The position numbers were made by a program, and so were the translations under genes. The notes below the pieces were generated by a model. The model was not told the origin of the DNA. It was given only the letters and a program-made list of their open reading frames with translations, and made no database searches. Below, in pieces: positions 6,976 to 43,483 of a stretch of 64,000 nt of DNA. Origin of the DNA: Spirochaetia bacterium UBA2205 (GTDB taxonomy: Bacteria > Spirochaetota > UBA4802 > UB4802); the NCBI GenBank assembly GCA_002328585.1, contig DCUV01000060.1, positions 72,482-136,481 on the forward strand, in the 5' to 3' direction. The first letter of the stretch is position 1. Every line of letters begins with the position of its first letter.

Positions 6976-8775
6976 CTACTCATCTTTATACATGGCATCT
7001 ATGATGTCTTTGTATTTGTCAGCTATAGCTTTTCGTTTAATTTTTAGTGTTGGTGTAATTTCTCCTGATTCTACGGTAAACTCATGAGGGAGAAGCGTAA
7101 ATCTCTTAATCTTTTCAAATCGGGCTAATTCTTTTTGTGCTTCTTCTATTCTTTGTCTGTAAAATTCGATAATCTCAGGCTTCGATATGAGGTCCTCTCT
7201 GCTGGTAAAAGAGATGTTATGTGTTTTTGCATATTCTTCTAATGCAATAAATGATGGAACAATAAGAGCTGTTACATATTTACGCTGATCACCAATAACA
7301 GCCATCTGCTCAATAAAATGATCTGCACCAATAGTGCTTTCTATCATTTGTGGTGCGATATATTTACCTCCTGAAGTTTTCATAAGATCTTTAATACGTT
7401 CGGTAATCCTTAGTTCACCATTTTCCTCAATATAGCCAGCATCTCCTGTTCTGAACCAGCCATCATGGGTAAATACTTCTGAAGTGGCTTGAGGTTTTTT
7501 ATAATAACCTTTCATGACATTTCCACCGCGAACAAGAATTTCTCCGTTATTTTCATCAATCTTCACTTCAACGTGAGGAAGGGGTTTCCCAACAGCACCA
7601 AATTTAAATTTGTATGGTTCATGGCAGGTAACAGTTGCAGTTGTTTCACTTAATCCATAGCCGTAGCAAATAAATATTCCGCATGCATAAAAAAATTCTT
7701 CGATATCCTGTGATAGTGGTGCACCAGCACATGGGAAAAATTTAATTCTACCACCAACCACTTCACGAATCTTTTTTAATACAAGTGTATCAGCAATAGC
7801 AAATTTAAAACGCAAAAATGGCGGAATAAACTGTTGATCCTTTTTCTTGTTATTATGTTTTGCACCAACTGATACTGCCCAATTAAATAATTTTCGCTTC
7901 AATGGAGAGGCAGATTCAAGCTGGTTAAAGACTGTTGCATAAATCTTTTCATAAAATCGTGGAACGGCACACATGATTGTTGGTTTTACTTCCTGGATGC
8001 ATTCAATAATCTTTCCAGGATCTTCTAAATAGTTATTTGTCATGCCGGTTGCAAAGACATAGTATGTCCAGATACGTTCAAAGACATGGCTCAATGGCAA
8101 AAAGGCCAAAGAAACATCATTGTCATTGGGATCAATCAATCGCAGGTCATGCTCACCTTTTTGAAATATTACATTGGAATGGGTTAGCATAACACCTTTT
8201 GGCTCACCAGTCGTACCTGATGTATAAATTAAGGTTAGTAAATCGTCAATTTTCGCTTTTTGCATTCGTTCTGATAGAATAGTATCTTTATTTGATTGCT
8301 CACCAATTTTTAAAAAATCTTTAAAATACATTATTTTTTCAGATTTTTGTATTGGGACACTTTCTTTGAAGACAATTATTTTTTGTAAATGTTTGTTTTC
8401 AGGAAGTATTTGCATTATTTTTGAATATTGTTCAGCATCTCCGACAAATAGTACTTTGATCTCCGCATCGTTGATGATATATTCGGCCTGTTTGGCGGTA
8501 TTGGTGGCATAAATAGGAACAGGGATGCCACGGATACATAGTGATGCAATATCCGCTACTGTCCATAAGGGCATGTTTTGAGAAAAAATACCAACGGTTT
8601 CTTGCTCTCCGATTCCACATTCCAGCAATGCTTTGCTTGTGTTACGCACTAAATCACCAAATTGATTCCATGATATTTCTTCCCATTTATCCTTTGGTTT
8701 ATAACGCATAGCAACTCTATCGCCGTATTTATTGACCTGATCTAAGAATACTTGAGAATAATGTGTGTAATTCAT
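6976..8775 (-). CDS. Long-chain-fatty-acid--CoA ligase (AMP-binding ANL family)
   Basis: AMP-binding motifs YTSGTTGEPKGV, GYGLSETT, and GWFRTGDAGYIEENGELRITERIKDLMKTSGGKYIAP. Confidence 0.85.
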   Translation of the reverse strand: MNYTHYSQVFLDQVNKYGDRVAMRYKPKDKWEEISWNQFGDLVRNTSKALLECGIGEQETVGIFSQNMPLWTVADIASLCIRGIPVPIYATNTAKQAEYIINDAEIKVLFVGDAEQYSKIMQILPENKHLQKIIVFKESVPIQKSEKIMYFKDFLKIGEQSNKDTILSERMQKAKIDDLLTLIYTSGTTGEPKGVMLTHSNVIFQKGEHDLRLIDPNDNDVSLAFLPLSHVFERIWTYYVFATGMTNNYLEDPGKIIECIQEVKPTIMCAVPRFYEKIYATVFNQLESASPLKRKLFNWAVSVGAKHNNKKKDQQFIPPFLRFKFAIADTLVLKKIREVVGGRIKFFPCAGAPLSQDIEEFFYACGIFICYGYGLSETTATVTCHEPYKFKFGAVGKPLPHVEVKIDENNGEILVRGGNVMKGYYKKPQATSEVFTHDGWFRTGDAGYIEENGELRITERIKDLMKTSGGKYIAPQMIESTIGADHFIEQMAVIGDQRKYVTALIVPSFIALEEYAKTHNISFTSREDLISKPEIIEFYRQRIEEAQKELARFEKIKRFTLLPHEFTVESGEITPTLKIKRKAIADKYKDIIDAMYKDE

Positions 8776-14432: not shown

Positions 14433-14822
14433 TTATTGTAAAAAAAAAGCTACTGCACAAACTATTCCAACAATTATCTGGAATAGTGCATCGATAATAA
14501 GTGCAAGACGGCTGCCTTCATGTCCTAATTCATCAAGACCTTCAAGGAAAAGTTTTTTAACCTTTTCCGGATATATTAATATAAATGGTCCGGTGAATAC
14601 TATAATTAATCCAATAATGAAAAGAGGTATTGAAAGTGAATTGGACGATGGTATTTGTGTAAGTGGAAATCCTGCTATAATAAGTATGATACCATGGATA
14701 AAATATAACTTGCTTGAAGTCCATCTAATCCATAATGACATCATAACTTTTGGGATAATAATTTCCAATAATCCTATACTAAATGCAACACAACCAAATG
14801 TTAAAATATAATACATTAACAT
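14433..14822 (-). CDS. Small integral membrane protein, unknown function
   Basis: 129 aa with 3-4 predicted transmembrane helices. Confidence 0.4.
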   Translation of the reverse strand: MLMYYILTFGCVAFSIGLLEIIIPKVMMSLWIRWTSSKLYFIHGIILIIAGFPLTQIPSSNSLSIPLFIIGLIIVFTGPFILIYPEKVKKLFLEGLDELGHEGSRLALIIDALFQIIVGIVCAVAFFLQ

Positions 14823-14954: not shown

Positions 14955-15596
14955 TCAGTCATTTTTATCTATAATTTTTTTTGAATATTTATATACGCCT
15001 TTCAGTGTTTTTAACGGTTGATCCTTTGCAGAAATATTTACTATCCATGCTGGAAGTGAGCCGCCTAATTCTGGATGTACCTGATATATCACTTCAACGT
15101 GGTTTTCATCTTTTTTGATTATATCCCATCGTCCCTTTAAGGAAGTCATTCTGACATAGCCACTGTCCTTTTTATATTCACTTGCATTAATAGATGTCAT
15201 AGTTACCCATGCTGTTCCTTTATTTTCATCCCAGCCAGATTCAACCTTAACTACTACATCACGATCTTTTACAACAGGAAGGTCCAGTACAAAGTACATG
15301 TCTAAATCCTGTGGATTCCGTACAGTGATTGCATATAAAGCATCGCACATGCCATACCATTTATGATAATTTGTATAATCCTGAATCACTTTTAATGCAA
15401 CATCAAATGGTATGTCGGCATAGCTCACTCCTTTAAATTCTTTATAGATAGAACCTGGTAATTCTCGTGTATAAATTTTGAGTACGGCATTGTCCTCTTT
15501 TCCTTCGTATATCAATTTCCATTGCTGTTGACCAAAAACAAAAACTGTTACAGTGATACATATAAATGTAAGTAGAAAGGTAAATGATTTTTTCAT
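14955..15596 (-). CDS. Secreted START/SRPBCC (Bet v1-like) lipid-binding domain protein
   Basis: Signal peptide, about 190-aa START-like fold. Co-oriented with the thiolase/ligase operon. Confidence 0.5.
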   Translation of the reverse strand: MKKSFTFLLTFICITVTVFVFGQQQWKLIYEGKEDNAVLKIYTRELPGSIYKEFKGVSYADIPFDVALKVIQDYTNYHKWYGMCDALYAITVRNPQDLDMYFVLDLPVVKDRDVVVKVESGWDENKGTAWVTMTSINASEYKKDSGYVRMTSLKGRWDIIKKDENHVEVIYQVHPELGGSLPAWIVNISAKDQPLKTLKGVYKYSKKIIDKND

Positions 15597-15640
15597 GGCA
15601 AACCTCCATGGTTTAGTATATTTTTGAAATACTATTATAA

Positions 15641-16819
15641 TTAATTAACCTTTTCTATCAGTAATGCGCCTGCATTACCAAATGCTCCACATAGTGAAGC
15701 AAGCCCATATTTTGCAGCAGGGAATTCAGTTGATAAAACATTAAGGAGTGTTACAACAATACGCGCTCCGGACTCCCCTAATGGATGACCTAATGCGAGT
15801 GCTCCTCCCCACACATTAACACGTTTAAACGGTGCATTTTCATTATCAAGTTTGAGCTCACGGATGCATGCTAATGATTGACTTGCAAAAGCCTCATTAA
15901 GCTCAATAGCACCAACTTCATCTAAATTTAATTTTTTACCTGCCACAAGCTTCTTAATTGCAGGTATTGGCCCAATACCCATAATAGTTGGGTCACAACC
16001 AGCTAAAACTCCATAAGAATATTTATACTTATATGATAACCCCATGGCATCAGCCTTTGTGCGACTCATGAGGAGAAGTGCGCATGCACCTTGAGTTAAG
16101 GGAGATGATGTAGCTGCTGTCACAACACCATCAGGTTTGAATGGTGACATCATTGTTTTCATTTTTTCAGGTTCAATTTTTTCACGAATCCATTGGTCTC
16201 TATCAACCATGAACTCGTTGCCATTGTCATCCAAACCTTTTATAGGTACTATCTCATTTTTAAATTTCCCGGCGATAGTTGCTTCCCATGCTTTTTTGTT
16301 TGACCATATCGCCATATTTTCCATATCTTCACGTGCAATTTTCCACATTTCAGCAACTTTCTCAGCCGTTGGTCCCATTAAAAGATCTGCACCGTTGTAG
16401 AATTTTAATAATCGGGGTGGAAAATCCATATTGGCTCCCATGGGAACCTTTTCCATATCCTCAACTCCTGCTGCTATGATGATGTCAGCTTCACCGGTCA
16501 TAATTGCTCGTGCAGCATGCATGGTAGCTGACATGCCTGATGGGCATTGATTGGTAAGGGTGTTAGTTGGTACTGAATCAGGAAATCCAGATGCCAGCCA
16601 TGCTAATCTTCCAATATCATTTTGCATTCCGGAAGGATTAGCACAACCTACAAAAACTGCATCAAGCATATCGGGAGTAATTTTGCTGTTACGTTCAAAT
16701 AATGCATTATAAACAGGCGTTAAAAGCTCATCAGGTCTTAAGTGCCTAAACCAACCTTTCTCTCGATGAGCCCTTCCATTTGGTGTTCTTACACCATCAA
16801 TGAAAACACATTCTCTCAT
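15641..16819 (-). CDS. Acetyl-CoA C-acyltransferase (thiolase)
   Basis: Thiolase N- and C-terminal signatures (..VNVWGGALALGHPLGESGARI.., C-terminal CGAFGNAGALL). Confidence 0.9.
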   Translation of the reverse strand: MRECVFIDGVRTPNGRAHREKGWFRHLRPDELLTPVYNALFERNSKITPDMLDAVFVGCANPSGMQNDIGRLAWLASGFPDSVPTNTLTNQCPSGMSATMHAARAIMTGEADIIIAAGVEDMEKVPMGANMDFPPRLLKFYNGADLLMGPTAEKVAEMWKIAREDMENMAIWSNKKAWEATIAGKFKNEIVPIKGLDDNGNEFMVDRDQWIREKIEPEKMKTMMSPFKPDGVVTAATSSPLTQGACALLLMSRTKADAMGLSYKYKYSYGVLAGCDPTIMGIGPIPAIKKLVAGKKLNLDEVGAIELNEAFASQSLACIRELKLDNENAPFKRVNVWGGALALGHPLGESGARIVVTLLNVLSTEFPAAKYGLASLCGAFGNAGALLIEKVN

Positions 16820-16848
16820 GGTAACCTCTCCATAAAAAATAAATAATA

Positions 16849-18729
16849 TTATTTAGATTTTGTTGCTAATTTTCTTTTTGATCTGGAAAACTCTTCAACA
16901 GCTATCTGGCGTAATAATTTTTTATCAACTTTTTCTACTGCTGTGCGAGGTAAATCATCGACAATCTTTACAAATTTTGGGACTGCATATTTTGCTACCT
17001 TTGCTTCAAGATATGATATAACATCTTTGGCAGTTAATTTTTTCATAAACTGCGGGAAAGGCTGTACAAACACAACTACTATCTCACTTCCTTCTCTTTC
17101 AGGATCTGGAATACCAACTGTTGCTGCAGTTTCTATCTGAGGATGTTCATAAAGAATTTCATCTATTTCTTTTGAGTAAACTTTGAATCCTGAAACATTG
17201 ATCATATCTTTTGTTCTATCGACAATATAAAAATAACCATTGCTATCAATCTGAACAACATCACCAGTATGTATAAATCCATCGTTGTCAAAACCACTAT
17301 CTGGTTTTGGCCAGTAACCCAGCATTCGTTGTGGACCATTTAAGAGCATTTCGGCCCTTCTCCCGGCGAGCATATCTTCAATGGGAATCAAATTTCCCGT
17401 TTCAAAATCCAAAAAGCGAATTTCAGTATCAGGGAAAGGAATGCCAATGGTACGTCGTTTTTCGACTGATTTCTTGCGGGTTTTTTTTGAGGTTGATTTC
17501 ATTCTCCATGCTATAATTTTAGTAAAAATATGACCAAAATTTTTAGTCCCTAGTAGTTGAAATAAACTGTTATTTAAATACAGCATGAATGGAATTTTAA
17601 GTAACAGGGTAATAAGTAAAACCCCTGTTTTACCTCCCAGAATACGGTACATTATGGTTGAATTAAGATGTGTTACCGGTGACATTTCTGATAGTCCATA
17701 TCCCTCCATAATGCCACTGTGTGATTTTTTTTCAAATTCCTCCTGTGTTGATTCTGAAAGTGGAGCCGAACCTGAAAGCCCAAGAATACCTATGCCATCA
17801 AGTTCTTCCCTTGCTAATTTCATAAATTGTGTTGGAACACCAATTTGCATTACCGGATAGTGTTTTTTAATATTATCTACCATTGCTTTTGTATCACGTG
17901 AGTCATTGATTAAAATTAAATTAAATCCAAATAACATCATTGTATGCATGAGACAATGACCATAACTATGGAAAAAAGGTAATCCCAGAATGGCTGAGAT
18001 TGCACCTTTAAACGAAATACCTCCTAAACCAAGAGCATGTAAGTTCTGAATACAATTTGCATAAATATTTCTGTGCGTTAGCATACAACCTTTAGGAACG
18101 CCAGTTGTACCACCAGTAAATAGCAGTGTTTCAATATCATTTTGGACATCAATGGCAACGGGCGATACATTGCCTGATGATGATTGAATAAGTGAATAGA
18201 GCTCGTATACATGCTTATGTTTTAGGATTTGTTTTGGATCAAATCTCGAAATATCGTTGCTTTTGCGTATTGTTGTTACTATAATGAATTGTAAGGAAAA
18301 CTTTTTCATTAAATTTTTTACTACTGCAATATGATCGTCAATAACAGTGCAGATAATAGCTTTAGGTTTTGCTTCTTTAAACTTGTGCTCAAGAGCTTCG
18401 GCTGGTTCCAGTGCACTACATGGTAAATGGATGAGACCTGCTTTTGCTATTGCATAATCACACATAACAAATTCTGTTGAAGTTGGAAGTATCGTTGCTA
18501 TGATATCGTTCTTTTTTAATCCAAACCCCTGGAATGCTGATGCAAGTTTGTTAACATATTCTAATAATTCTGGATATGATAAAAAGAAATTTTCTTGTAT
18601 AAGTCCGTTCTTTTTATATTTTTTTGCTGCAATTTCAAGAATCTCATACACTGGTTTTCCAGGATATGGTTTAAAGGTTTTGGGTATGCCTAAAATCTTA
18701 TATTCTTTATACCACGGTAGTGCTCCCAT
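16849..18729 (-). CDS. AMP-binding acyl-CoA synthetase carrying an unusual ~60-aa hydrophobic/basic insertion. Start placed at the Met with SD GGAGG.
   Basis: ANL motifs (TGGTTGVPKGC, EGYGLSEMSP, GFIHTGDV). Internal segment GVLLITLLLKIPFMLYL...KSTSKKTRKKSVEKRR sits between the GYGxTE and GxPxP motifs. Confidence 0.75.
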   Translation of the reverse strand: MGALPWYKEYKILGIPKTFKPYPGKPVYEILEIAAKKYKKNGLIQENFFLSYPELLEYVNKLASAFQGFGLKKNDIIATILPTSTEFVMCDYAIAKAGLIHLPCSALEPAEALEHKFKEAKPKAIICTVIDDHIAVVKNLMKKFSLQFIIVTTIRKSNDISRFDPKQILKHKHVYELYSLIQSSSGNVSPVAIDVQNDIETLLFTGGTTGVPKGCMLTHRNIYANCIQNLHALGLGGISFKGAISAILGLPFFHSYGHCLMHTMMLFGFNLILINDSRDTKAMVDNIKKHYPVMQIGVPTQFMKLAREELDGIGILGLSGSAPLSESTQEEFEKKSHSGIMEGYGLSEMSPVTHLNSTIMYRILGGKTGVLLITLLLKIPFMLYLNNSLFQLLGTKNFGHIFTKIIAWRMKSTSKKTRKKSVEKRRTIGIPFPDTEIRFLDFETGNLIPIEDMLAGRRAEMLLNGPQRMLGYWPKPDSGFDNDGFIHTGDVVQIDSNGYFYIVDRTKDMINVSGFKVYSKEIDEILYEHPQIETAATVGIPDPEREGSEIVVVFVQPFPQFMKKLTAKDVISYLEAKVAKYAVPKFVKIVDDLPRTAVEKVDKKLLRQIAVEEFSRSKRKLATKSK

Positions 18730-18749
18730 TGCTTTCCTCCATAACGCAT

Positions 18750-18795
18750 AAAAATAAAAAAATATCTCAACCACATTAATGTATGTGGTTGAGAT
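18750..18795 (-). terminator. Rho-independent terminator after the SCP2 gene (13-bp perfect stem ATCTCAACCACAT / ATGTGGTTGAGAT, U-run on the minus strand)
   Basis: Seen in sequence. Lies between the SCP2 stop and the ligase RBS. Confidence 0.6.
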
Positions 18796-18808
18796 AAAAA
18801 ATCATTTA

Positions 18809-19366
18809 TCAAGTGAATAGGGGTTGGGTTGCCATAGCAAAGCTCATGTCGCCTTCAATCTTCATTGCTCCTGACATGAAAAGATTTACTGGATTGGTTT
18901 CTTTTTTCATCAAAGCAGCAGAATCTTTTGTACTCATCCGGAAAATAGACTGCGGGGATGTGGCACCGTTGAGAATTGCTTCAATGGTAAATTCTGAGCC
19001 ATCATCATTTTTTAGTTTAGCTATAAAGCTGCCTTTTAATGATGATAGTGCATTGTAACGGGCACGTGTCAGATCTTTTTGCATACCCAGCAGCATATCA
19101 AGATTATTTGTGTCGATCATCTTTTTAAGATCGGATCCAGATATTTTTAATCTGAGCATGGCAGTGGGGATATCACCACATGGTGTAATATCTTTCCCAT
19201 CTTTAACTTTGAAACCATACGACTTTCCATCTACTTCAACTACCATTGTTATTTCTGTACCGCTTAATTCTTCAGGTGCATTAGAATTTTGGAGCATGTC
19301 CAAAGCTTCTTTTGGCATAATCTCGGTTAAAAATTGTTCAACCGTGGTATTTGATGTAGTAACCAT
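18809..19366 (-). CDS. SCP2 sterol-carrier domain protein
   Basis: C-terminal SCP2 fold (..NLFMSGAMKIEGDMSFAMATQPLF). Start taken at the second ATG, 6 nt after AAAGGAGG. Confidence 0.6.
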   Translation of the reverse strand: MVTTSNTTVEQFLTEIMPKEALDMLQNSNAPEELSGTEITMVVEVDGKSYGFKVKDGKDITPCGDIPTAMLRLKISGSDLKKMIDTNNLDMLLGMQKDLTRARYNALSSLKGSFIAKLKNDDGSEFTIEAILNGATSPQSIFRMSTKDSAALMKKETNPVNLFMSGAMKIEGDMSFAMATQPLFT

Positions 19367-19428
19367 AACCATCCTCCTTTATAATATAAAAAAAATTAAA
19401 AAAAGGGATAAATAAAAAATTTTCTTGA

Positions 19429-19448
19429 AATACTGACATGTCAGTATT
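19429..19448. promoter_or_regulatory. Perfect 20-bp palindrome AATACTGACATGTCAGTATT, putative TetR operator in the divergent SCP2-operon / tetR intergenic region
   Basis: Same core as the 30-bp palindrome at 20230-20259. Confidence 0.7.
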
Positions 19449-19595
19449 ATATTATTTTGTCAAGGTTATTTTTTTAAAAAATTCGGATTTTTAGTAAAAA
19501 ATTTTTTTTATTGATTGATATATAGTTAATGGTTAGATGGTTGATTTAATTTTGATTATATTATTTAAGAATTTACTATGTGCTGGAGGTATCCG

Positions 19596-20210
19596 ATGTC
19601 AAAAGCTGATGAAACCCGTGAAAAAATTTTATTGTATGCTAAACAATTATTCTCTGAAAAAGGATATTACTTATCTCAGATTTCCGATATCGTGGAATCA
19701 GCTAAAATTGGCAGAGGAACAGTCTATCAATATTTTTCAAATAAAGAGCACCTTTTTATATCCTTGCTGGAACGATTTTTGATTGAATGGGAAGATTATA
19801 TAAAAGAACTATCAATCAATGAAGATTTAAGTATGATCTCACATTACACCTATTTACAAAAGCGTTTATATAAAGCCTTTAAATTTTTTTTCAGCGACAG
19901 AGATAGAGCAAATATAATTTTAAGATCCGGGCTGGGTTTACCAGATCATTTTGAACAGAAAATACAACATTTTGAAAATAAGCTCATAAACATGATTATT
20001 ATTGATCTGGCAATAGCTGTTGAATTTAAACACATTGAGACAAAAGAGGATTTAAGTTTTGCAGCTAACTTGATTGCAGGTGGTGTATTCAGGATAGCTC
20101 ATTATTATCTTTCCATAGAGGTTAATGATACCATATTGTTACAAAATTTGAATGAAATTACTGATAAAGCAGCAAATTTCATAGGCAATGGTATTTTCGG
20201 GAAAAAATAG
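19596..20210 (+). CDS. TetR/AcrR-family transcriptional regulator (FadR-like), between two beta-oxidation operons
   Basis: N-terminal TetR HTH (ETREKILLYAKQLFSEKGYYLSQISDIVESAKIGRGTVYQYF). ATG 6 nt after GGAGG. Confidence 0.85.
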   Translation: MSKADETREKILLYAKQLFSEKGYYLSQISDIVESAKIGRGTVYQYFSNKEHLFISLLERFLIEWEDYIKELSINEDLSMISHYTYLQKRLYKAFKFFFSDRDRANIILRSGLGLPDHFEQKIQHFENKLINMIIIDLAIAVEFKHIETKEDLSFAANLIAGGVFRIAHYYLSIEVNDTILLQNLNEITDKAANFIGNGIFGKK

Positions 20211-20229
20211 TTGACTAATTTTTGTAGTT

Positions 20230-20259
20230 GTATAAATACTGACATGTCAGTATTTATAC
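20230..20259. promoter_or_regulatory. Perfect 30-bp palindrome GTATAAATACTGACATGTCAGTATTTATAC overlapping the promoter/5'UTR of the acd-acd-hbd-ech operon, putative TetR operator
   Basis: Seen in sequence. Ends 15 nt before the RBS AAAGAGGAGG of the first acd gene. TTGACT lies 14 bp upstream. Confidence 0.75.
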
Positions 20260-20274
20260 AAAGAGGAGGTAATT

Positions 20275-21372
20275 ATGGTAGAAGAAATTAGTTTTGCATT
20301 GTCTGAGGAACAACAGATGATGCAGGATACTGTACGACAGCTGGTGCAGGCTAACATTACGGATGGTATTCATCAGATGGATGAGAATCGGCAGCTTAAC
20401 AATCAGGCAGTACAAAAATTTTGGGAATTGGGGATTATTCAATCAATGATTCCTGAAGAATTTGGCGGTTATGGGATGGATAGTTCACCTGTATTGCATA
20501 CGCTTATGTTGGAAGAATTGGCTTATGGGGATATGACATTTGCAATATATGCGATGCTTCCTGCCGTTTTTGTTTTGCCAATAGTACATTTAGGAACAAA
20601 AGAACAAAAAGAACTATATCTTCCCGAATTTTGTAATACAACATTTTTCCCTGCTACATTGGCAATTAATGAATTAAGCATAGCCTTTGATGTATGGAAC
20701 TGTACAACTACTGCTGAAAAGAAAGGGGACAAATACGTTATTAATGGTAGTAAGTGCTTTGTGCCACTGGCTGACGAATCAAACTTTATGATTGTAGTGG
20801 CTCATTATGAGGGTAACCCGGAGCTATTTATTGTCACAAAAGATAGCACTGGAGTAAAAGTTGGCGACCGTGAAAAAAATTCTGGATGGTGGGCATTACC
20901 TACTTTTGAAGTAGTGTTTGAAAATTGTATCATTCCTGCATCGAATAGATTAGGTGATAGTAGTGCTATTACCTGGTTACTGCAGAGAACAAAAACTGCG
21001 CTTGCTGCAATTGGTACAGGTATTTCACGAGCTTCATATGAATATGCAAAAAAGTATGCAAAAGAACGTCAACAATTTGGCGAATCAATAGCCAGCCGCC
21101 AATCAATTGCATTTATGATAGCTGAAATGGCTTACGAGATAGATGCTATGCGATTGTTAGCATGGAAAGCTGCTTCAACCATTGAAAACAAATTAGATGC
21201 TACGAAATTATCATATTTAGCAAAGATATATGCAGGTGAGATGGTCATGAAGATTACCGACTATGGTGTTCAGATACTTGGAGGACATGGTTATATTCGC
21301 GACCACCCTGTAGAGCGGTATTACCGCAATGGTAGAAGTATAGCCGTGTGTGAAGGTATGGCAATTATATAA
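20275..21372 (+). CDS. Acyl-CoA dehydrogenase family protein (short form, 365 aa)
   Basis: ACAD N-terminal, middle and C-terminal domains. C-terminal ..RNGRSIAVCEGMAI. Confidence 0.8.
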   Translation: MVEEISFALSEEQQMMQDTVRQLVQANITDGIHQMDENRQLNNQAVQKFWELGIIQSMIPEEFGGYGMDSSPVLHTLMLEELAYGDMTFAIYAMLPAVFVLPIVHLGTKEQKELYLPEFCNTTFFPATLAINELSIAFDVWNCTTTAEKKGDKYVINGSKCFVPLADESNFMIVVAHYEGNPELFIVTKDSTGVKVGDREKNSGWWALPTFEVVFENCIIPASNRLGDSSAITWLLQRTKTALAAIGTGISRASYEYAKKYAKERQQFGESIASRQSIAFMIAEMAYEIDAMRLLAWKAASTIENKLDATKLSYLAKIYAGEMVMKITDYGVQILGGHGYIRDHPVERYYRNGRSIAVCEGMAII

Positions 21373-21390
21373 ACTATCGGAGGCATATGT

Positions 21391-22587
21391 ATGATTCAAT
21401 TAGTTACACCTGAATATTTAGTAACAATGCAAAATAATCTTCATAAATTAGCTGAAGGAGTTTTACGTCCTATATCACGAAAATATGATGAAGCAGAACA
21501 TGAATATCCAAAAGAATTGGATATGTTTAAGAATATAAAAGTTATGGCTCGTCCCAAGAAGAAAAAGGAAGGTGAAACATCATCATCAGGTGAAGAAAAA
21601 AAACCAAAACGTGGTGCAAATTTAGGGATGGTAGCTACCATTGAAGCGATGTGCTGGGGTGATGCAGCACTGCTATTATCGTTTCCCAATGCTGGTCTGG
21701 GCAATGCAGCTATTATTGCAGTAGCAAATGATGAACAATTTGAACGATTTGGGAATAAATGGGCGGCGATGGCAATTACCGAGCCGGGCGCTGGTTCTGA
21801 TTCAGGCGCTATTACCACAACAGCAACTCGTGATGGGGACTTCTGGGTATTGAACGGTGAAAAGATATTTGTCACCTGTGCTGATAGATGTGAGGTAGTA
21901 GTTGTTTGGGCGACAGTTGATAAAAAGGCTGGCAAATCAGGTATTAAATCATTTGTGGTGGAGAAAGGAACTTCAGGATTTACATTAGAACATCTGGAGC
22001 ATAAATTAGGTATCAGAGCTTCTGACACTGGAACGTTTGTGTTAAGTGATTGTAGAATACCCTATAACAACATATTAGGCGATCCAGAAGTAAAGATGTC
22101 CACTGAAGGTTTTAAAGGAGTAATGAAAACCTTTGATAATACCCGGCCAATGGTTGCTGCAATGGCTACCGGTATAGCACGAGCAGCAGTAGAATTTACT
22201 AAAGAACAATTTGAACAAAAGGGATATACATTTGATTATAAGAAAAATGTTTCAAATGTTTCAGCAGTTGAACGTGAATTGTATATGATGGAGGCAAATG
22301 TAGAAGCAATGCGTCTTTTAACATGGCGTGCTGCATGGATGGCTGATAATGGTCAATTTAATAATCTTGAAGCTTCTATGGCAAAAGCAAAAGCGGGACG
22401 GTATGCAACATTGGTTACTCAACGCTGCTGTGAGCTTTTAGGACCTGTTGGTTATTCAACTCATTATTTAGCTGAAAAGTGGATGAGAGACAGCAAAATT
22501 ATGGATATCTTTGAGGGTACAGGACAAATTCAGCATCTTATTGTTGCTCGCAATGTAATGGAGATGTCTAGCAAAGAGCTAAAGTAA
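21391..22587 (+). CDS. Acyl-CoA dehydrogenase with a Lys/Ser-rich low-complexity insert near the N-terminus
   Basis: Canonical ACAD C-terminus (..KIMDIFEGTGQIQHLIVAR). Insert ARPKKKKEGETSSSGEEKKPKRG. Confidence 0.85.
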   Translation: MIQLVTPEYLVTMQNNLHKLAEGVLRPISRKYDEAEHEYPKELDMFKNIKVMARPKKKKEGETSSSGEEKKPKRGANLGMVATIEAMCWGDAALLLSFPNAGLGNAAIIAVANDEQFERFGNKWAAMAITEPGAGSDSGAITTTATRDGDFWVLNGEKIFVTCADRCEVVVVWATVDKKAGKSGIKSFVVEKGTSGFTLEHLEHKLGIRASDTGTFVLSDCRIPYNNILGDPEVKMSTEGFKGVMKTFDNTRPMVAAMATGIARAAVEFTKEQFEQKGYTFDYKKNVSNVSAVERELYMMEANVEAMRLLTWRAAWMADNGQFNNLEASMAKAKAGRYATLVTQRCCELLGPVGYSTHYLAEKWMRDSKIMDIFEGTGQIQHLIVARNVMEMSSKELK

Positions 22588-22624
22588 TAAAGATTTATAA
22601 TCATTATTTCATAAGGAGGTGTTT

Positions 22625-23788
22625 ATGAATGATATCAATGATGTAAAAAAAATTGCGGTTATAGGTTCAGGAGCTATGGGGCATGGGATAGCACAGGTTT
22701 GTGCTCAAAATGGTTTTCCGGTTACCATGATTGATATTAAACAGGAATTTTTAGATAATGCATTAAAAAAAGTTAAGGAAAGTTTAGAGTTTTTAGCATC
22801 AAAAGGAAAACTGAACGGCACAGTTGACGAGGTTATGAAAAAAATAAATGCAACAACGGATATAAAAAAAGGAGTATCTGATGCGCAGGTTGTTATTGAG
22901 GCGGTACCTGAAAATATGCAGCTTAAAAAAGATGTGTTTTCACAAGCTTCTGCTGCATGTACTGGTGATGCAATATTAGCAACCAATACTTCAACGATGA
23001 GTATTACAGATATTGCAACTGCAGTAAATAATCCTGAACGATTTGCCGGGATGCATTTTTTTAATCCTGTAACAAGAATGAAATTAGTTGAATTGATTTA
23101 TGGCTCTAAAACATCAGAAAAAACTATCGATATACTGTATGAACTTGCTAAAAAGATAGATAAAATACCTGTTAAGGTTTTAAAGGATAGGCCGGGTTTT
23201 ATTGTCAATAGAATCAATGCACCAAATCAGGCATTGCTGAGCGCTATTCTTGATGAAGGAAAAATTCATCCTGCACAGATAGATGGCAAAATGAAGAAGA
23301 TGGGCGTAAAAATGGCGCCTTTTGAAACAGCAGATTTTGTTGGACTTGATGTATTTTGTCATACTCTGGAATATTATTCACAGACACTATCGCCACAGTA
23401 TAAGCCTGGAAAATTTTTGAAGGAATGCTTATCAAAGGGAAATTTAGGGATGAAAAGTGGTAAAGGTATTTATGAATGGAACAATGGGAGAGCAGTTATA
23501 CCTGAAATGACTGATACAGAAGAGATTACCCCTCTTCACCTTATGGCTGTACAGGTAAATGAAGCGGTAAAAGTATTTAAGGAAGGGATTGCTGCAAATG
23601 TTGTTGATATTGATGATGGTGTTAAATATGGAATGAATGCATTTGCAGGCCCTTTTGCTTTAGCATCTGGAGTGCAACCTCAACAATTGACAGAATGCTT
23701 GCATTATCTGGCGCAACGATATAAACTTGACATTTTAAAGCCAGAACCTGAAATAATTGATGGTTCATTTAAAACTATAGGAAGATAG
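22625..23788 (+). CDS. 3-hydroxyacyl-CoA dehydrogenase
   Basis: N-terminal Rossmann IAVIGSGAMGHGIA and C-terminal 3HCDH domain. ATG 5 nt after AAGGAGG. The track start is an upstream GTG. Confidence 0.9.
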   Translation: MNDINDVKKIAVIGSGAMGHGIAQVCAQNGFPVTMIDIKQEFLDNALKKVKESLEFLASKGKLNGTVDEVMKKINATTDIKKGVSDAQVVIEAVPENMQLKKDVFSQASAACTGDAILATNTSTMSITDIATAVNNPERFAGMHFFNPVTRMKLVELIYGSKTSEKTIDILYELAKKIDKIPVKVLKDRPGFIVNRINAPNQALLSAILDEGKIHPAQIDGKMKKMGVKMAPFETADFVGLDVFCHTLEYYSQTLSPQYKPGKFLKECLSKGNLGMKSGKGIYEWNNGRAVIPEMTDTEEITPLHLMAVQVNEAVKVFKEGIAANVVDIDDGVKYGMNAFAGPFALASGVQPQQLTECLHYLAQRYKLDILKPEPEIIDGSFKTIGR

Positions 23789-23798
23789 GAGGTAGGTA

Positions 23799-24566
23799 AT
23801 GTCAGATGCAGTTTTATTAGAACAAAAAGGAATGGTTGCAATTTTAACTATCAACAAACCCAAAGCAAACCAGTTGAGTCATGATGTTTTTGAAACAATG
23901 CGTAAATATCTTGATACGCTGGAAATTGATAAAAACATCCGTGTGCTTGTTATTACTGGTTCAGGTGATAAAATATTTTGCGCTGGTGCCGACTTATCAC
24001 AGGGCTTTGGTGATTTCAGTGCCGTTGATTTTTTAAAGCGTGGTCAGGATATATGGAATAAGATAGAGGACTACCCTAAACCAGTCATTGCTGCAATAAA
24101 TGGTCATGCATTGGGGGGCGGATGTGAACTGTCAATGGCATGCCATATACGAATAATGAAAAAAGGTGCTCGTATTGGTTTAACGGAAACAAATCTGGGG
24201 ATAATGCCTGGGTATGGTGGGACACTCCGTTTGCCGCGCCTTGTTGGACGTGCTAAAGCCCTTGAAATGATACTTTTTGGAAAACAGTTAGAGGCAGAAG
24301 AAGCTTTAGCGTTGGGTCTGGTACACAGGGTATGTGATGAAGGATATATGGATGAGGTGATGAAATTTGCGGAAGAATTATCTACACGTCCTCCATTGTC
24401 AATTAAGGCAGTATTAAAAGTTATGTCTGCCGGTCCTTCTATGTCACCTGAAATGTATTTAAAGATGGAAAGAGAAGAATTAGCTAAATTATTTACCACG
24501 AAAGATTGCATGGAAGGGATGATGGCTTTTGCTCAAAAGCGAAAACCAGAATTCAAAGGTGAATAG
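23799..24566 (+). CDS. Enoyl-CoA hydratase/isomerase (crotonase)
   Basis: Crotonase fold motifs (ITGSGDKIFCAGADL, INGHALGGGCELSMACH). Confidence 0.9.
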   Translation: MSDAVLLEQKGMVAILTINKPKANQLSHDVFETMRKYLDTLEIDKNIRVLVITGSGDKIFCAGADLSQGFGDFSAVDFLKRGQDIWNKIEDYPKPVIAAINGHALGGGCELSMACHIRIMKKGARIGLTETNLGIMPGYGGTLRLPRLVGRAKALEMILFGKQLEAEEALALGLVHRVCDEGYMDEVMKFAEELSTRPPLSIKAVLKVMSAGPSMSPEMYLKMEREELAKLFTTKDCMEGMMAFAQKRKPEFKGE

Positions 24567-24597: not shown

Positions 24598-24630
24598 AAA
24601 ACCTCACATTGTTTTGTGAGGTTTTTTTCT
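24598..24630 (+). terminator. Rho-independent terminator of the acd-hbd-ech operon (AAACCTCACA-ttgtt-TTGTGAGGTTT plus T-run)
   Basis: Seen in sequence. Confidence 0.75.
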
Positions 24631-24677
24631 TGTTTTTAGAATTGCATTATTATAGTATGGCAAATGATGATATATTC

Positions 24678-24719
24678 ATCTATTAATATTAATATTTTGC
24701 AATAATAATATTAATAGAT
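24678..24719. promoter_or_regulatory. Inverted repeat ATCTATTAATATTA-N14-TAATATTAATAGAT about 90 bp upstream of the second TetR gene, a candidate autoregulatory operator
   Basis: 14-bp perfect arms. AT-rich, so chance occurrence is not excluded. Confidence 0.35.
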
Positions 24720-24808: not shown

Positions 24809-25402
24809 ATGGCTGGTACAGGTGTTAGAGAAAATGGCAAACAAAGAAGATTAATTATGGAAAAGTCTCAGGTTCTTTTCTGGGAAAAGGGGTATGCCGA
24901 AACAAGTATGAAAGATATTGCTAATGAATGTGGTTTCAGACCGGCAAATATATACAATTTTTTTGCAAGTAAAGAAGAGATACTTTTTTCTATTTTAAAA
25001 GAAGAGATGGAAGAAATTGTAAATCCCATACGGTTTCTGGAATATGAAGAAAACGATCCTTTACAACAATTACGCTTTCTTATAGAAATCCACGTAAAAA
25101 TTACTTTAGGAGAGAAAAGAGCTTCCAAATTATTATTTGATACAGAACTCAGGAATCTTTCAGCAGAAAGAAGAAAAGTAATATTAGATTTACGCGATGA
25201 TTATAACAGAATAGGATATGCAATACTGAAAAGAGGTATTCATAAAGGTTTGTTTAAAGCTATGGATGAAAAGATTGCATTAAATCTAATTGCTTCAATG
25301 ATTGTTAGAACACGCTTATGGTTTTCCCCTGAAGATTGGATGACAATTGAAGATTTAATAGAATTTATTTTTCAATTTGCTCTTAAAGGGCTTTCAAGGT
25401 AA
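24809..25402 (+). CDS. TetR-family transcriptional regulator (second copy)
   Basis: TetR HTH (..SMKDIANECGFRPANIYNFFASKEEIL..). ATG after GAGGAG. Confidence 0.8.
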   Translation: MAGTGVRENGKQRRLIMEKSQVLFWEKGYAETSMKDIANECGFRPANIYNFFASKEEILFSILKEEMEEIVNPIRFLEYEENDPLQQLRFLIEIHVKITLGEKRASKLLFDTELRNLSAERRKVILDLRDDYNRIGYAILKRGIHKGLFKAMDEKIALNLIASMIVRTRLWFSPEDWMTIEDLIEFIFQFALKGLSR

Positions 25403-43206: not shown

Positions 43207-43483
43207 ACTTCATACCTTTTTGTAGTTAGTATAGTATAACTATCGGTAATACCATCTCAAATTAAAATTTAAATTTTTTCTTAATATTTATACGATAGTG
43301 ATTTATATAAATATATGTTTAGTGATTTATTTTTTTAGCTAGGTGACATAATTATGATTGACTTTTTTATTTTATTATTCTAACGTAATATATAAAAATA
43401 TATCATATCAAACCAATAATAACCATTGCATTATTTATTATATAGTGAACGCGTTGGTTTATTTCTTTTTTGGGAGTCTTTAT

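Follow-up and report, generated by a model that had tools for sequence, protein, structure and literature searches.

Two perfect palindromes around a TetR-family gene as putative operators of its neighbouring beta-oxidation operons in a Spirochaetota lineage

Introduction

Cultured Leptospira depend on long-chain fatty acids as carbon source. In an uncultured, Leptospirales-related lineage of the Spirochaetota, the gene of a TetR-family regulator, tetR1, lies between two operons for fatty-acid degradation and is bracketed by two palindromes built on the same core, which raises the question whether these palindromes are the sites through which the regulator controls the operons. We investigated this question in a 64-kb window, that is, the whole stretch of DNA presented here, and in a comparison that took in more than 100 related DNA stretches. 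The comparative evidence supports the reading that the two palindromes, O1 and O2, are operators of TetR1, encoded between them, which would control both beta-oxidation operons; we give this reading a probability of roughly 0.78. Judged from the sequences compared, this would be an ordinary kind of switch in an undescribed example, with a site whose sequence is identical across several bacterial phyla.

Results

Firstly, we established the genes of the locus. The context described in the original prediction, two divergent fatty-acid operons and a TetR gene, was recovered with Pfam (Table 1). All genes of both operons act on acyl-CoA or carry lipid according to Pfam and NCBIfam; the divergent operon opens with SCP2 and closes with START, both of them lipid or sterol carrier domains, and a 129-aa ORF (14433-14822) may belong to it as well. 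Its gene order is conserved in L002, L004, L005, L007 and L008, and that of the acd operon in the orthologous loci whose sequence spans it. L001, L002 and L005 share the terminator that closes the acd operon, and in the last two its stem carries compensatory changes. For tetR1, the most likely start is ATG 19596 and not ATG 19578, as judged from a GGAGG at 19585-19589 and from the resulting 204 aa, the length of most orthologs.

Table 1. Coordinates of the genes, putative operators and promoter-like elements of the locus (positions in the window)
Feature	Position	Strand	Description
Operator O1 (putative)	19429..19448	.	20-bp perfect palindrome AATACTGACATGTCAGTATT, core 19431-19446, divergent SCP2/tetR intergenic region
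Operator O2 (putative)	20228..20261	.	34-bp perfect palindrome TTGTATAAATACTGACATGTCAGTATTTATACAA, core 20237-20252
P_tetR, promoter-like	19425..19453	+	TTGAAA (19425-19430), 17-nt spacer = operator, TATATT (19448-19453)
Conserved TTGACA	19458..19463	-	faces SCP2 operon, 11 nt upstream of O1 core
Conserved TTGACT	20211..20216	+	directly after tetR stop codon, 20 nt upstream of O2 core
tetR1	19596..20210	+	204-aa TetR-family regulator, proposed binder of O1 and O2; PF00440 TetR_N
Divergent operon	14955..19372	-	SCP2, acyl-CoA ligase, thiolase, START-domain protein; Pfam
SCP2 gene	18809-19372	-	Pfam
acyl-CoA ligase gene	16849-18774	-	Pfam; NCBIfam long-chain-fatty-acid-CoA ligase matches
thiolase gene	15641-16819	-	Pfam
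START-domain protein gene	14955-15596	-	Pfam
Operon downstream of O2	20275..24566	+	acd-acd-hbd-ech; Pfam
acyl-CoA dehydrogenase, first	20275-21372	+	Pfam
acyl-CoA dehydrogenase, second	21391-22587	+	Pfam
3-hydroxyacyl-CoA dehydrogenase	22619-23788	+	Pfam
enoyl-CoA hydratase	23799-24566	+	Pfam
Intrinsic terminator closing acd operon	24598..24631	+	AAAACCTCACATTGTTTTGTGAGGTTTTTTTC
TetR2, second TetR of the locus	24809-25402		TetR_C_24 and weak YsiA-like TetR_C_4 domain

Secondly, we analysed the two palindromes. The 20-bp perfect palindrome announced between the SCP2 operon and tetR is present (O1). The other, announced as a 30-bp palindrome with the same core, exists as a 30-mer at 20230-20259, but the full perfect palindrome (O2) is 34 bp long, with 17-nt arms, 100 % complementarity and zero gap, and has the tetR stop on one side and the RBS of the first acyl-CoA dehydrogenase gene on the other. 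The distance of 15 nt that had been given to this RBS is that from the end of the 30-mer to ATG 20275; the RBS, GGAGG at 20265-20269, is nearer, 5 nt past the 30-mer and 3 nt past the full palindrome. O2 is the sole long perfect palindrome in the window, other inverted repeats of comparable length being 70-92 % complementary. The core common to O1 and O2 is a 16-bp dyad, TACTGACATGTCAGTA, with exactly two occurrences in the window. At three mismatches or fewer, the core has three matches in the window when 0.35 are expected, a number that none of 100 shuffles reaches (0/100); the third match, TACGGATATATCAGTA at 48074, was rejected as a site: its place within an 892-aa ORF marks it as a chance match.

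Thirdly, we followed the sites through the orthologous loci. Wherever the TetR of an orthologous locus is 73-99 % identical to TetR1, the core is unchanged at both positions and the flanks vary; it is the same base for base in L001-L006, where the flanks differ, and every further variant, 13 at O2 and 13 of the close clade at O1, has it with 100 % identity. A distant clade with the same gene order, in which the TetR is 43-44 % identical, keeps the core with one or two substitutions (TACTGACATATCAGTT, TACTGRCATGTCAGTA, TACTGACGTGTCAGTA and TACTGACATGTCAGTT) and has two sites at the O1 position.

The sites keep a base-exact distance from TTGACT and TTGAAA across lineages. O1 occupies the spacer of P_tetR, which matches the consensus at 10 of 12 positions, and the geometry TTGMAA-N17/18-TAnnnT is found in all 13 close-clade O1 variants (TTGAAA-N17-TATAAT in L001). 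On the opposite strand, a TTGACA stands beside O1 in 16 of 17 variants, the seventeenth (L117) having TTGACT; this hexamer is possibly the -35 of the SCP2-operon promoter. The TTGACT on the O2 side, kept at fixed spacing in all complete O2 variants and replaced by TTGACA in the distant clade, is a candidate -35 of the acd-operon promoter, and the promoter scan lists TTGACT-N18-AATACT (9/12 consensus) as an acd candidate. At canonical spacing from the conserved TTGACA and TTGACT we found no convincing -10 for the SCP2 and acd promoters: the hexamers at 16-18 nt (AATACT, AGTACT, CATGTC) are poor and were rejected as sigma-70 -10 boxes, while a spacing of 14 nt gives TATAAA/TATAAG in O2 and one of 6 nt gives TATAAT on the strand that faces SCP2. 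Promoter occlusion is solid for P_tetR only.

The flanks of O2 are symmetric beyond its core. In 11 of 13 distinct variants they covary in a way that preserves self-complementarity, extending the palindrome by 6-12 bp beyond the core, so that O2 is a perfect palindrome of 30-40 bp in most close relatives; the flank sequences differ between lineages yet pair perfectly, with compensatory changes even between the window and L110. At O1, which has the same core, the palindrome extends by 0-4 bp only. Recognition by a protein gives no explanation for the symmetry of the outer flanks. In nine of the 11 symmetric variants, no more than 5 nt separate the right arm of O2 from the SD, and as RNA O2 is predicted to form a 15-bp stem, the 80-nt region having an MFE of -19.3 kcal/mol (z = -3.85). 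These four features, namely the covarying flanks, the short extension at O1, the closeness of the right arm to the SD and the stability of the predicted stem, speak for a reading in which O2, possibly both sites, is mainly a nucleic-acid hairpin superimposed on an operator, which we hold to be possible, at well below even odds. In a tetR-acd read-through transcript, such a hairpin could terminate part of the transcripts, act on processing or stability from its place just 5' of the RBS, or be a site of roadblock-assisted release. A terminator scan of 19300-20350 gave no hit, so that none lies between tetR and acd, which suits a read-through transcript; the same scan, and the lack of a U-tract after O2, whose A+T-rich stem is followed by AAAGAGGAGG, count against the hairpin and led us to reject O2 as an intrinsic terminator, the genuine one being found after ech. 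Three further observations also weigh against the hairpin. What is conserved in the core is the sequence itself, beyond its ability to pair, so that it must be read by a protein; the extension is dispensable, being absent from four of five O2 sites in the distant clade; and, if TTGACT is the -35, transcripts would, to judge from the spacing, start inside the palindrome and contain one arm only. Moreover, the correction of quasi-palindromes by template switching is an established mutational mechanism and could give the same pattern without selection. As to known operators, O2 is longer than a single TetR dimer needs and in this resembles IR1, the long palindromic operator on which two dimers of QacR sit. 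QacR, one of the fold matches to the TetR1 model, reads the whole of IR1, whereas O2 conserves the sequence of its 16-bp core only and, in its outer flanks, symmetry only.

We then consider TetR1 itself, the proposed reader of the core. PF00440 recognises its DNA-binding domain at residues 17-62 of the called ORF (50.7 bits, cut-off 24; E = 1.5e-13), and its AlphaFold model (pLDDT 89.2, pTM 0.84, ten helices) fits the all-alpha TetR fold of ~200 residues: at E <= 0.001 the model has 340 matching PDB chains, of which the 50 listed all belong to TetR-family regulators. The predicted sites are placed as operators of this family are, O1 in the P_tetR spacer and O2 before the adjacent operon. Among PDB structures, the fold comes closest to that of B. 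subtilis FadR with stearoyl-CoA (3WHC) and to B. halodurans FadR, at TM 0.71-0.77; by Foldseek E-value, these stand roughly one to two orders of magnitude ahead of TtgR, HapR and QacR. Bacillus FadR (YsiA; 1VI0, 3WHB, 3WHC; B. halodurans 5GP9, 5GPA, 5GPC) is a TetR-family repressor that autoregulates, represses beta-oxidation operons via palindromic promoter boxes and is released by long-chain acyl-CoA, and we propose the same release for TetR1. The term FadR-like, as used in the original prediction, is apt for the fold and the proposed mode of action, but not for orthology. TetR1 is 20-22 % identical to Bacillus FadR and reaches 43.2 bits, over its N-terminal 95 residues only, against the NCBIfam FadR equivalog NF053878, the cut-off of which is 200; Pfam found TetR_N alone in it, the YsiA-like C-terminal domain PF08359 TetR_C_4 being absent; and its conserved sites carry TACTGACATGTCAGTA, which is unrelated to the Bacillus FadR box, GATGAATGAATACTCATTCAT, bound by two dimers (PMC5397183). 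The stretch L009, which encodes a 40 %-identical TetR1 homolog, has AATGAATAATTCATT upstream, which suggests that the specificities for the FadR box and for TACTGACATGTCAGTA diverged within one broader lineage. TetR1 homologs are restricted to a small family, and neither a named family nor a solved close relative of TetR1-like proteins was found in NCBIfam or the PDB. Further regulators of the same family and logic, Thermus thermophilus FadR (3ANP, 3ANG), Sulfolobus acidocaldarius FadR (PMC6449355) and M. tuberculosis FasR, Fad35R, Mce3R and KstR, are all among the structural or sequence matches; in each, a regulator encoded inside the cluster it controls acts at a palindromic operator and answers to acyl-CoA or lipid, and they are weaker fold matches than Bacillus FadR (TM 0.61-0.72), with no equivalog score.

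With O1 and O2 as operators of TetR1, the locus would work as follows. Without inducer, TetR1 dimers would bind the 16-bp dyad; we infer that binding is physical and that it represses rather than activates. At O1, in the P_tetR spacer and 11 nt from TTGACA, TetR1 would shut off both its own gene (autoregulation) and the divergent operon, and at O2 it would prevent initiation at the acd operon, transcription running on from tetR, or the two together. The effector, derived from lipid and most likely a long-chain acyl-CoA supplied by the co-regulated ligase, would then bind the C-terminal domain and free the DNA, and the whole pathway would be induced by its own substrate. Owing to the 43 bits of TetR1 against the FadR cut-off and to its lack of a YsiA-type domain, the case for an acyl-CoA effector comes down to fold rank and gene context. 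TetR1 might also bind the sites and sense something other than acyl-CoA, for instance fatty acids in free form, lipids of a sterol- or hopanoid-like kind, or some further hydrophobic substrate that SCP2 and START bring to it. The failure of the FadR equivalog test would fit such a ligand, as would the SCP2 and START lipid or sterol carriers of the divergent operon and the SCP2 genes that accompany the TetR1-like gene in L015, L034, L041, L098 and L111. In other phyla, the cargo behind the same regulator/operator pair is not beta-oxidation (an unknown 441-aa protein; a ~1000-aa phosphodiesterase/sulfatase-like protein), and the effector of the family therefore need not be acyl-CoA. We nevertheless regard a different ligand as rather unlikely for TetR1: the best structural matches are acyl-CoA-bound FadRs, acyl-CoA is the product of the ligase in the regulon and the substrate of four enzymes there, and characterised TetR-type fatty-acid regulators respond to acyl-CoA (PMC5397183, PMC6449355).

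We assessed the distribution of the motif by two independent collection-wide scans for the exact 18-mer, which is carried by 121 stretches. Of these, 28 are Spirochaetota fad loci, and in 57 the context was not assignable. Another 25 are contigs of other phyla, 24 with a GC content of 0.54-0.74 and one, from a Bacteroidia, with 0.37; a TetR1-like gene always adjoins the exact 18-mer there, the site centre being 8-162 bp upstream of it in 24 of the 25. Across phyla, the sites co-occur exclusively with TetR1-type genes, although the AT-rich 18-mer is ~7-fold rarer in DNA of 55-74 % GC than under uniform composition. This location upstream of TetR1-like genes in other phyla indicates that the TetR between the sites is the probable binder. 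The TetR1-like proteins across these phyla are 19-29 % identical overall, and those of the other phyla score 36-66 bits against NF053878; common to all motif-associated TetRs is a reading head I-(G/A)-R-G-T-(V/F)-Y-(Q/L)-Y-F. The central claim of the original prediction, that the palindromes are probably operators of the TetR they bracket, is in this way supported by the footprint, the co-occurrence of the regulator, the non-repeat status of the motif and the fold.

That TetR2 binds the sites, with TetR1 doing something else, is very improbable. TetR2 is the more FadR/YsiA-like of the two by Pfam, through its C-terminal domains, and its gene directly follows ech in the close clade, but it is absent from the syntenic L007 and L008, where the sites persist, and a TetR2-type partner occurs in 0 of the 25 other-phylum contigs. 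We rejected it as the binder on the first of these grounds together with its different recognition helix (FRPANIYNFF), the conserved terminator that sets it off and an upstream inverted repeat of its own, TATTAAYATT-N10-AATRTTAATA. The weakest reading, already contradicted, is that the palindromes are a generic dispersed repeat (REP-like or a mobile-element end) or a chance duplication unrelated to regulation: very long palindromes on the same core do occur elsewhere (50 bp in L023, 40 bp in L047) and the stretches of unassignable context would allow it, but the check for a generic repeat found two copies in 64 kb and one to four per related genome, the assignable ones promoter-proximal to the same gene families, and not the many copies in varied, mostly inter-operon 3' contexts of REP-like elements, with base-exact positions relative to TTGACT and TTGAAA and with presence at TetR1-like promoters even where an AT-rich 18-mer is rare.

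Discussion

The regulon had been predicted to comprise two operons; both do carry sites, but the regulon of relatives is larger, with a 7TMR-DISM/MCP chemoreceptor gene, a second hydratase gene and a hydrolase/oxidoreductase pair as extra targets. In the 64-kb window we found no MCP or DUF4398 homolog, and a 737-aa ORF (43358-45571) considered as a chemoreceptor target proved to be an anaerobic ribonucleotide reductase. A wider, joint reading, which we offer as speculative and doubtful as a whole, has three parts. A 16-18-bp operator that hardly varies, R-TACTGACATGTCAGTA-Y, would form an ancient module together with its TetR partner, with different cargo and spanning Spirochaetota, Actinomycetota, Planctomycetota, Acidimicrobiia-like and Bacteroidia lineages. 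In the window's clade, O2, a 30-40-bp perfect hairpin abutting the RBS, would have gained a second role, so that it combines the DNA operator with an RNA (or cruciform) element that couples tetR read-through to expression of the beta-oxidation operon. Finally, the repressor would tie the 7TMR-DISM chemoreceptor to fatty-acid catabolism and so provide substrate-induced chemotaxis.

If confirmed, the assignment would be the first of a regulator to its operator for fatty-acid catabolism in this lineage, and a very clean pair, with a perfect 16-bp dyad that is the same base for base across phyla. The pair would be of use in predicting regulons from metagenome-assembled genomes and perhaps as a switch responsive to lipid or acyl-CoA, and the SCP2 and START genes give a clue to the sensing and handling of very hydrophobic substrates. 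The covarying flanks of O2 are a small, well-defined puzzle in the evolution of palindromic operators; the general picture of TetR-type regulation is left unchanged. Literature searches for the motif, or for a published operator containing it, found nothing relevant, and those on Leptospira TetR and beta-oxidation returned general transcriptome papers only. In two Streptomyces contigs, the same core precedes an amine oxidase gene and has a TetR of another kind (TetR_C_28 type) nearby, and the sequence is therefore not exclusive to this lineage.

A predicted operator pair around tetR

Footprint, co-occurrence, promoter geometry and fold support the original prediction that the two palindromic sites bracketing tetR, O1 and O2, form an operator pair, putatively bound by TetR1, the regulator encoded between them. 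Direct reading of positions 19200-20500 placed O1, AATACTGACATGTCAGTATT, as had been described, between tetR and the divergent SCP2-ligase-thiolase-START operon (SCP2 operon). O2, ahead of the acd-acd-hbd-ech operon (acd operon), is likewise real and has the same core, but it is longer than the 30 bp first reported: TTGTATAAATACTGACATGTCAGTATTTATACAA is a gapless perfect palindrome whose 17-nt arms are 100% complementary. The 30-mer had also been placed 15 nt before the ribosome-binding site (GGAGG at 20265-20269); these 15 nt in fact separate its end from the start codon at 20275. The 64-kb window contains exactly two copies of the common 16-bp core, TACTGACATGTCAGTA. With up to three mismatches allowed, we obtained three matches where 0.35 were expected, a number reached by none of 100 dinucleotide-preserving shuffles; the third match lies inside an 892-aa ORF and was discarded as a site. 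No other perfect inverted repeat of comparable length was found in the 64-kb window. Pfam and NCBIfam bore out the gene list. The tetR start is most likely the ATG located 7 nt past a GGAGG, giving 204 aa as in most orthologs. SCP2 is the first gene of the divergent operon and the START-domain gene the last Pfam-assigned one, so that two lipid-carrier folds enclose thiolase and ligase; no operator accompanies a further acyl-CoA ligase gene nearby.

Coordinates of the features, in the window unless a related stretch (L number) is named
Feature	Position	Strand	Assignment or remark
Further acyl-CoA ligase gene	6976-8775		
START-domain protein	14955-15596	minus	Pfam/NCBIfam; PF01852, weak, 27 bits
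Thiolase	15641-16819	minus	Pfam/NCBIfam
Long-chain acyl-CoA ligase	16849-18774	minus	Pfam/NCBIfam
SCP2	18809-19372	minus	Pfam/NCBIfam
P_tetR, TTGAAA	19425-19430		towards tetR
O1	19429-19448		
P_tetR, TATATT	19448-19453		towards tetR
TTGACA	19458-19463	minus	faces SCP2 operon
TetR (TetR1)	19596-20210	plus	Pfam/NCBIfam
TTGACT	20211-20216		
O2, extended palindrome	20228-20261		
GGAGG	20265-20269		
Acyl-CoA dehydrogenase (first)	20275-21372	plus	Pfam/NCBIfam
Acyl-CoA dehydrogenase (second)	21391-22587	plus	Pfam/NCBIfam
3-Hydroxyacyl-CoA dehydrogenase	22619-23788	plus	Pfam/NCBIfam
Enoyl-CoA hydratase (ech)	23799-24566	plus	Pfam/NCBIfam
Intrinsic terminator after ech	24598-24631	plus	AAAACCTCACATTGTTTTGTGAGGTTTTTTTC; ends acd operon
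TetR2 inverted repeat	24678-24719		ATCTATTAATATTA...TAATATTAATAGAT
TetR2	24809-25402		past ech terminator; TetR_C_24, weak YsiA-like TetR_C_4
Discarded core match	48074		inside ORF
Extended O2 palindromes	L004 10690-10729; L005 10627-10664; L017 900-939; L037 5058-5087		
Extended O2 palindromes, further loci			L110, L107, L085, L096
Chemoreceptor/DUF4398 sites	L018 4710; L033 4589; L039 4151; L045 5737; L046 3236; L059 582; L089 804; L127 4032		
Sites before second enoyl-CoA hydratase	L022 7146; L011 2716; L118 4811		
Site before hydrolase/oxidoreductase pair	L024 517		
FadR-box-like sequence	L009 9983-9997		AATGAATAATTCATT
Streptomyces sites	L032 2183; L040 6546		ACTGTACTGACATGTCAGTACAGT
50-bp palindrome on core	L023 7450-7499		Leptospirales MAG
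40-bp palindrome on core	L047 7943-7982		Bacteroidales MAG
Tandem 18-mers	L114 209-247		

Position of the sites relative to promoters

O1 is exactly the 17-nt spacer of P_tetR, a promoter-like pair towards tetR that agrees with the consensus at 10 of 12 positions. The arrangement TTG(A/C/T)AA-N17/18-TAnnnT recurs in all 13 O1 variants of the close clade (loci with TetR 73-99% identical), and L001 has a perfect TATAAT. A repressor on O1 would occlude the tetR promoter. Facing the SCP2 operon, TTGACA, 11 nt from the core in close-clade variants, is present in 16 of 17 O1 variants (TTGACT in L117); no acceptable -10 was found at 16-18-nt spacing from it. On the other side, a conserved TTGACT abuts the tetR stop codon, the O2 core begins 20 nt further on, and 3 nt separate the end of the palindrome from the Shine-Dalgarno sequence; again, no confident -10 for the acd operon was found at 16-18-nt spacing from this hexamer. 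Both hexamers are similar to CTGACA, the operator half-site. In all targets a TTGAC(A/T) precedes the core by 6-21 nt, which puts the core where a repressor would be expected to sit. Since no terminator was found between tetR and the dehydrogenase gene, it is equally possible that a repressor at O2 would block read-through from P_tetR. L001, L002 and L005 all keep the terminator after ech, and in the last two its stem shows compensatory changes.

Conservation of the motif and association with TetR1-type genes

A search of 5.8 billion proteins returned only 28 TetR1 homologs (13 at 70-99% identity, 10 at 39-45% and 5 matching the query partially), and those with names come from Spirochaetota MAGs. 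Six loci with TetR 73-85% identical (L001-L006) have the divergent two-operon layout of the window; their core is unaltered at both the O1 and O2 positions and the flanking intergenic DNA varies. At about 44% identity (L007, L008), the full layout is retained and the sites are recognisable: the divergent region contains two of them, TACTGACATATCAGTT together with TACTGRCATGTCAGTA, and a single one, either TACTGACGTGTCAGTA or TACTGACATGTCAGTT, precedes the first dehydrogenase gene. The motif was not found in L009 and L010, where homologs 39-40% identical have other gene contexts; upstream of the 40%-identical homolog of L009 (P0022), in an unrelated gene context, lies a sequence resembling the Bacillus FadR box rather than the TACTGACA motif.

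We then scanned one genome per species (185,579 species) and a metagenome collection for the exact pattern RTACTGACATGTCAGTAY. By our arithmetic, about 35 matches are expected by chance in the 596-Gb genome set under uniform base composition, and in 65% GC DNA the probability per site falls about seven-fold. We sorted the 121 stretches recovered by means of a local TetR1 profile and of BLAST comparison with the proteins of the window. Twenty-eight are fad loci of the window's type, labelled Spirochaetota or Leptospirales; 25, from other phyla, have the site beside a TetR1-like gene (22 of these genes are full-length, with profile scores of 215-272, and 3 are partial or weaker); in eight, from the same Spirochaetota genomes, it separates a 7TMR-DISM methyl-accepting chemoreceptor gene from a DUF4398 gene that runs divergently; three have it ahead of a second enoyl-CoA hydratase gene; and 57 received no class, at least five of these sites being inside long ORFs and chance-like. 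Labels among these 25 contigs are Planctomycetota, Actinomycetota, Acidimicrobium, Anoxymicrobiaceae and Bacteroidia; GC content is 0.54-0.74 (0.37 for the Bacteroidia contig, L031), and in 24 of them the centre of the site precedes the TetR1-like gene by 8-162 bp. The identical 18-mer precedes TetR1-like genes in L013, L015, L025, L027, L028, L041, L061, L065, L067, L071, L073, L074, L078, L079, L083, L094, L098, L103, L111, L122, L130 and L031, the encoded proteins being at 19-29% identity. Every TetR associated with the motif has I-(G/A)-R-G-T-(V/F)-Y-(Q/L)-Y-F in its recognition helix. The classes contradict a generic repeat and tie the motif to TetR1-type genes, not to TetR2. The core is not strictly exclusive to the TetR1 lineage, since it also forms part of a 24-bp palindrome in two Streptomyces contigs; there the palindrome precedes a flavin amine oxidase gene (PF01593), and nearby is a TetR of another type (TetR_C_28), a lineage that apparently also uses the core.

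The predicted repressor

TetR2, a second TetR downstream of the acd operon that had escaped the original prediction, is a rival candidate binder of O1 and O2 by virtue of its position and weak YsiA-like domain; against it, TetR2 is missing from L007 and L008, where the sites persist, its recognition helix reads FRPANIYNFF, and it has its own upstream inverted repeat (14-nt arms, 14-nt gap), retained in L001 as TATTAACATT-N10-AATGTTAATA with a compensatory change and not seen in L002 or L005.

For TetR1, the only Pfam domain is TetR_N. Its best NCBIfam match, Bacillus FadR, reaches 43 bits where the cut-off is 200, which puts TetR1 outside the FadR equivalog group; the other-phylum proteins score 36-66 bits, some full-length. 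No close solved relative of either was found in the PDB. An AlphaFold model of TetR1 built on 23 family members was confident (pLDDT 89, pTM 0.84). Its best PDB matches were B. subtilis FadR with stearoyl-CoA (3WHC) and apo FadR (3WHB, 1VI0), then B. halodurans FadR (5GP9, 5GPA, 5GPC), with TM 0.71-0.77 for the FadRs of both species, followed by a putative Clostridium fatty-acid regulator and a Syntrophomonas TetR, then TtgR, HapR and QacR. Two dimers of B. halodurans FadR bind GATGAATGAATACTCATTCAT (PMC5397183), a box that differs from the TetR1-associated motif. The label "FadR-like" hence holds for fold rank and probable mode of action, TetR1 in all likelihood working like FadR, but not for equivalog membership. 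From fold rank and regulon content, we infer acyl-CoA as the effector. The predicted switch is an uncharacterised case of a very well-known type, and the motif was found in no paper of the searchable literature collection; an operator identical base-for-base across phyla, a chemoreceptor gene within the predicted regulon of relatives and covarying O2 flanks raise it slightly above routine.

Targets beyond the two operons

At the chemoreceptor loci, TTGACA-N5-site faces the receptor gene, an arrangement that suggests co-regulation of chemotaxis with fatty-acid catabolism in related Spirochaetota; no such chemoreceptor/DUF4398 pair is present in the window. The second hydratase gene likewise has a single site ahead of it in L022, L011 and L118, and in L022 a 4Fe-4S protein gene lies divergently. 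L024, an unclassed stretch, has its single site in front of an alpha/beta-hydrolase and FAD-oxidoreductase pair. Next after the TetR1-like gene, the high-GC contigs typically have genes for a protein of unknown kind of about 440 aa and an alkaline-phosphatase-superfamily protein of about 1000 aa, phosphodiesterase/sulfatase-like. SCP2 genes lie near the TetR1-like gene in L015, L034, L041, L098 and L111, with a ligase in two cases. Because cargo varies across phyla and operator and reading head are kept, acyl-CoA sensing by the whole family is less safe to assume.

Covarying flanks of O2

In 11 of 13 distinct close-clade O2 variants, the perfect palindrome extends 6-12 bp further per side, to 28-40 bp in total, through flanks that are lineage-specific in sequence yet exactly complementary: TTGTATAAA/TTTATACAA in the window and GATGATAAA/TTTATCATC, TAATAAAATAAG/CTTATTTTATTA, TATCTATATAAG/CTTATATAGATA and ACATATAATAG/CTATTATATGT in other variants. 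Where the window differs from L110, a 94%-identical relative, the changes are compensatory. At O1 the same core is extended by only 0-4 bp. Contacts made by a sequence-specific protein cannot account for flanks in which nothing but symmetry is conserved. The flanks may form a hairpin in the tetR-acd read-through transcript, for which a stem is predicted, and in 9 of 11 extended variants no more than 5 nt separate the right arm from the Shine-Dalgarno sequence; their symmetry may also reflect DNA cruciform effects, or mutational "perfecting" of quasi-palindromes through template switching. Four of five O2 sites in the distant clade (TetR 43-44% identical) have no extension, which is therefore not essential to regulation. 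Elsewhere, two co-directional genes of L023 flank a 50-bp perfect palindrome built on the core, L047 has one of 40 bp, and in L114 the 18-mer occurs twice in tandem, 3 nt apart.
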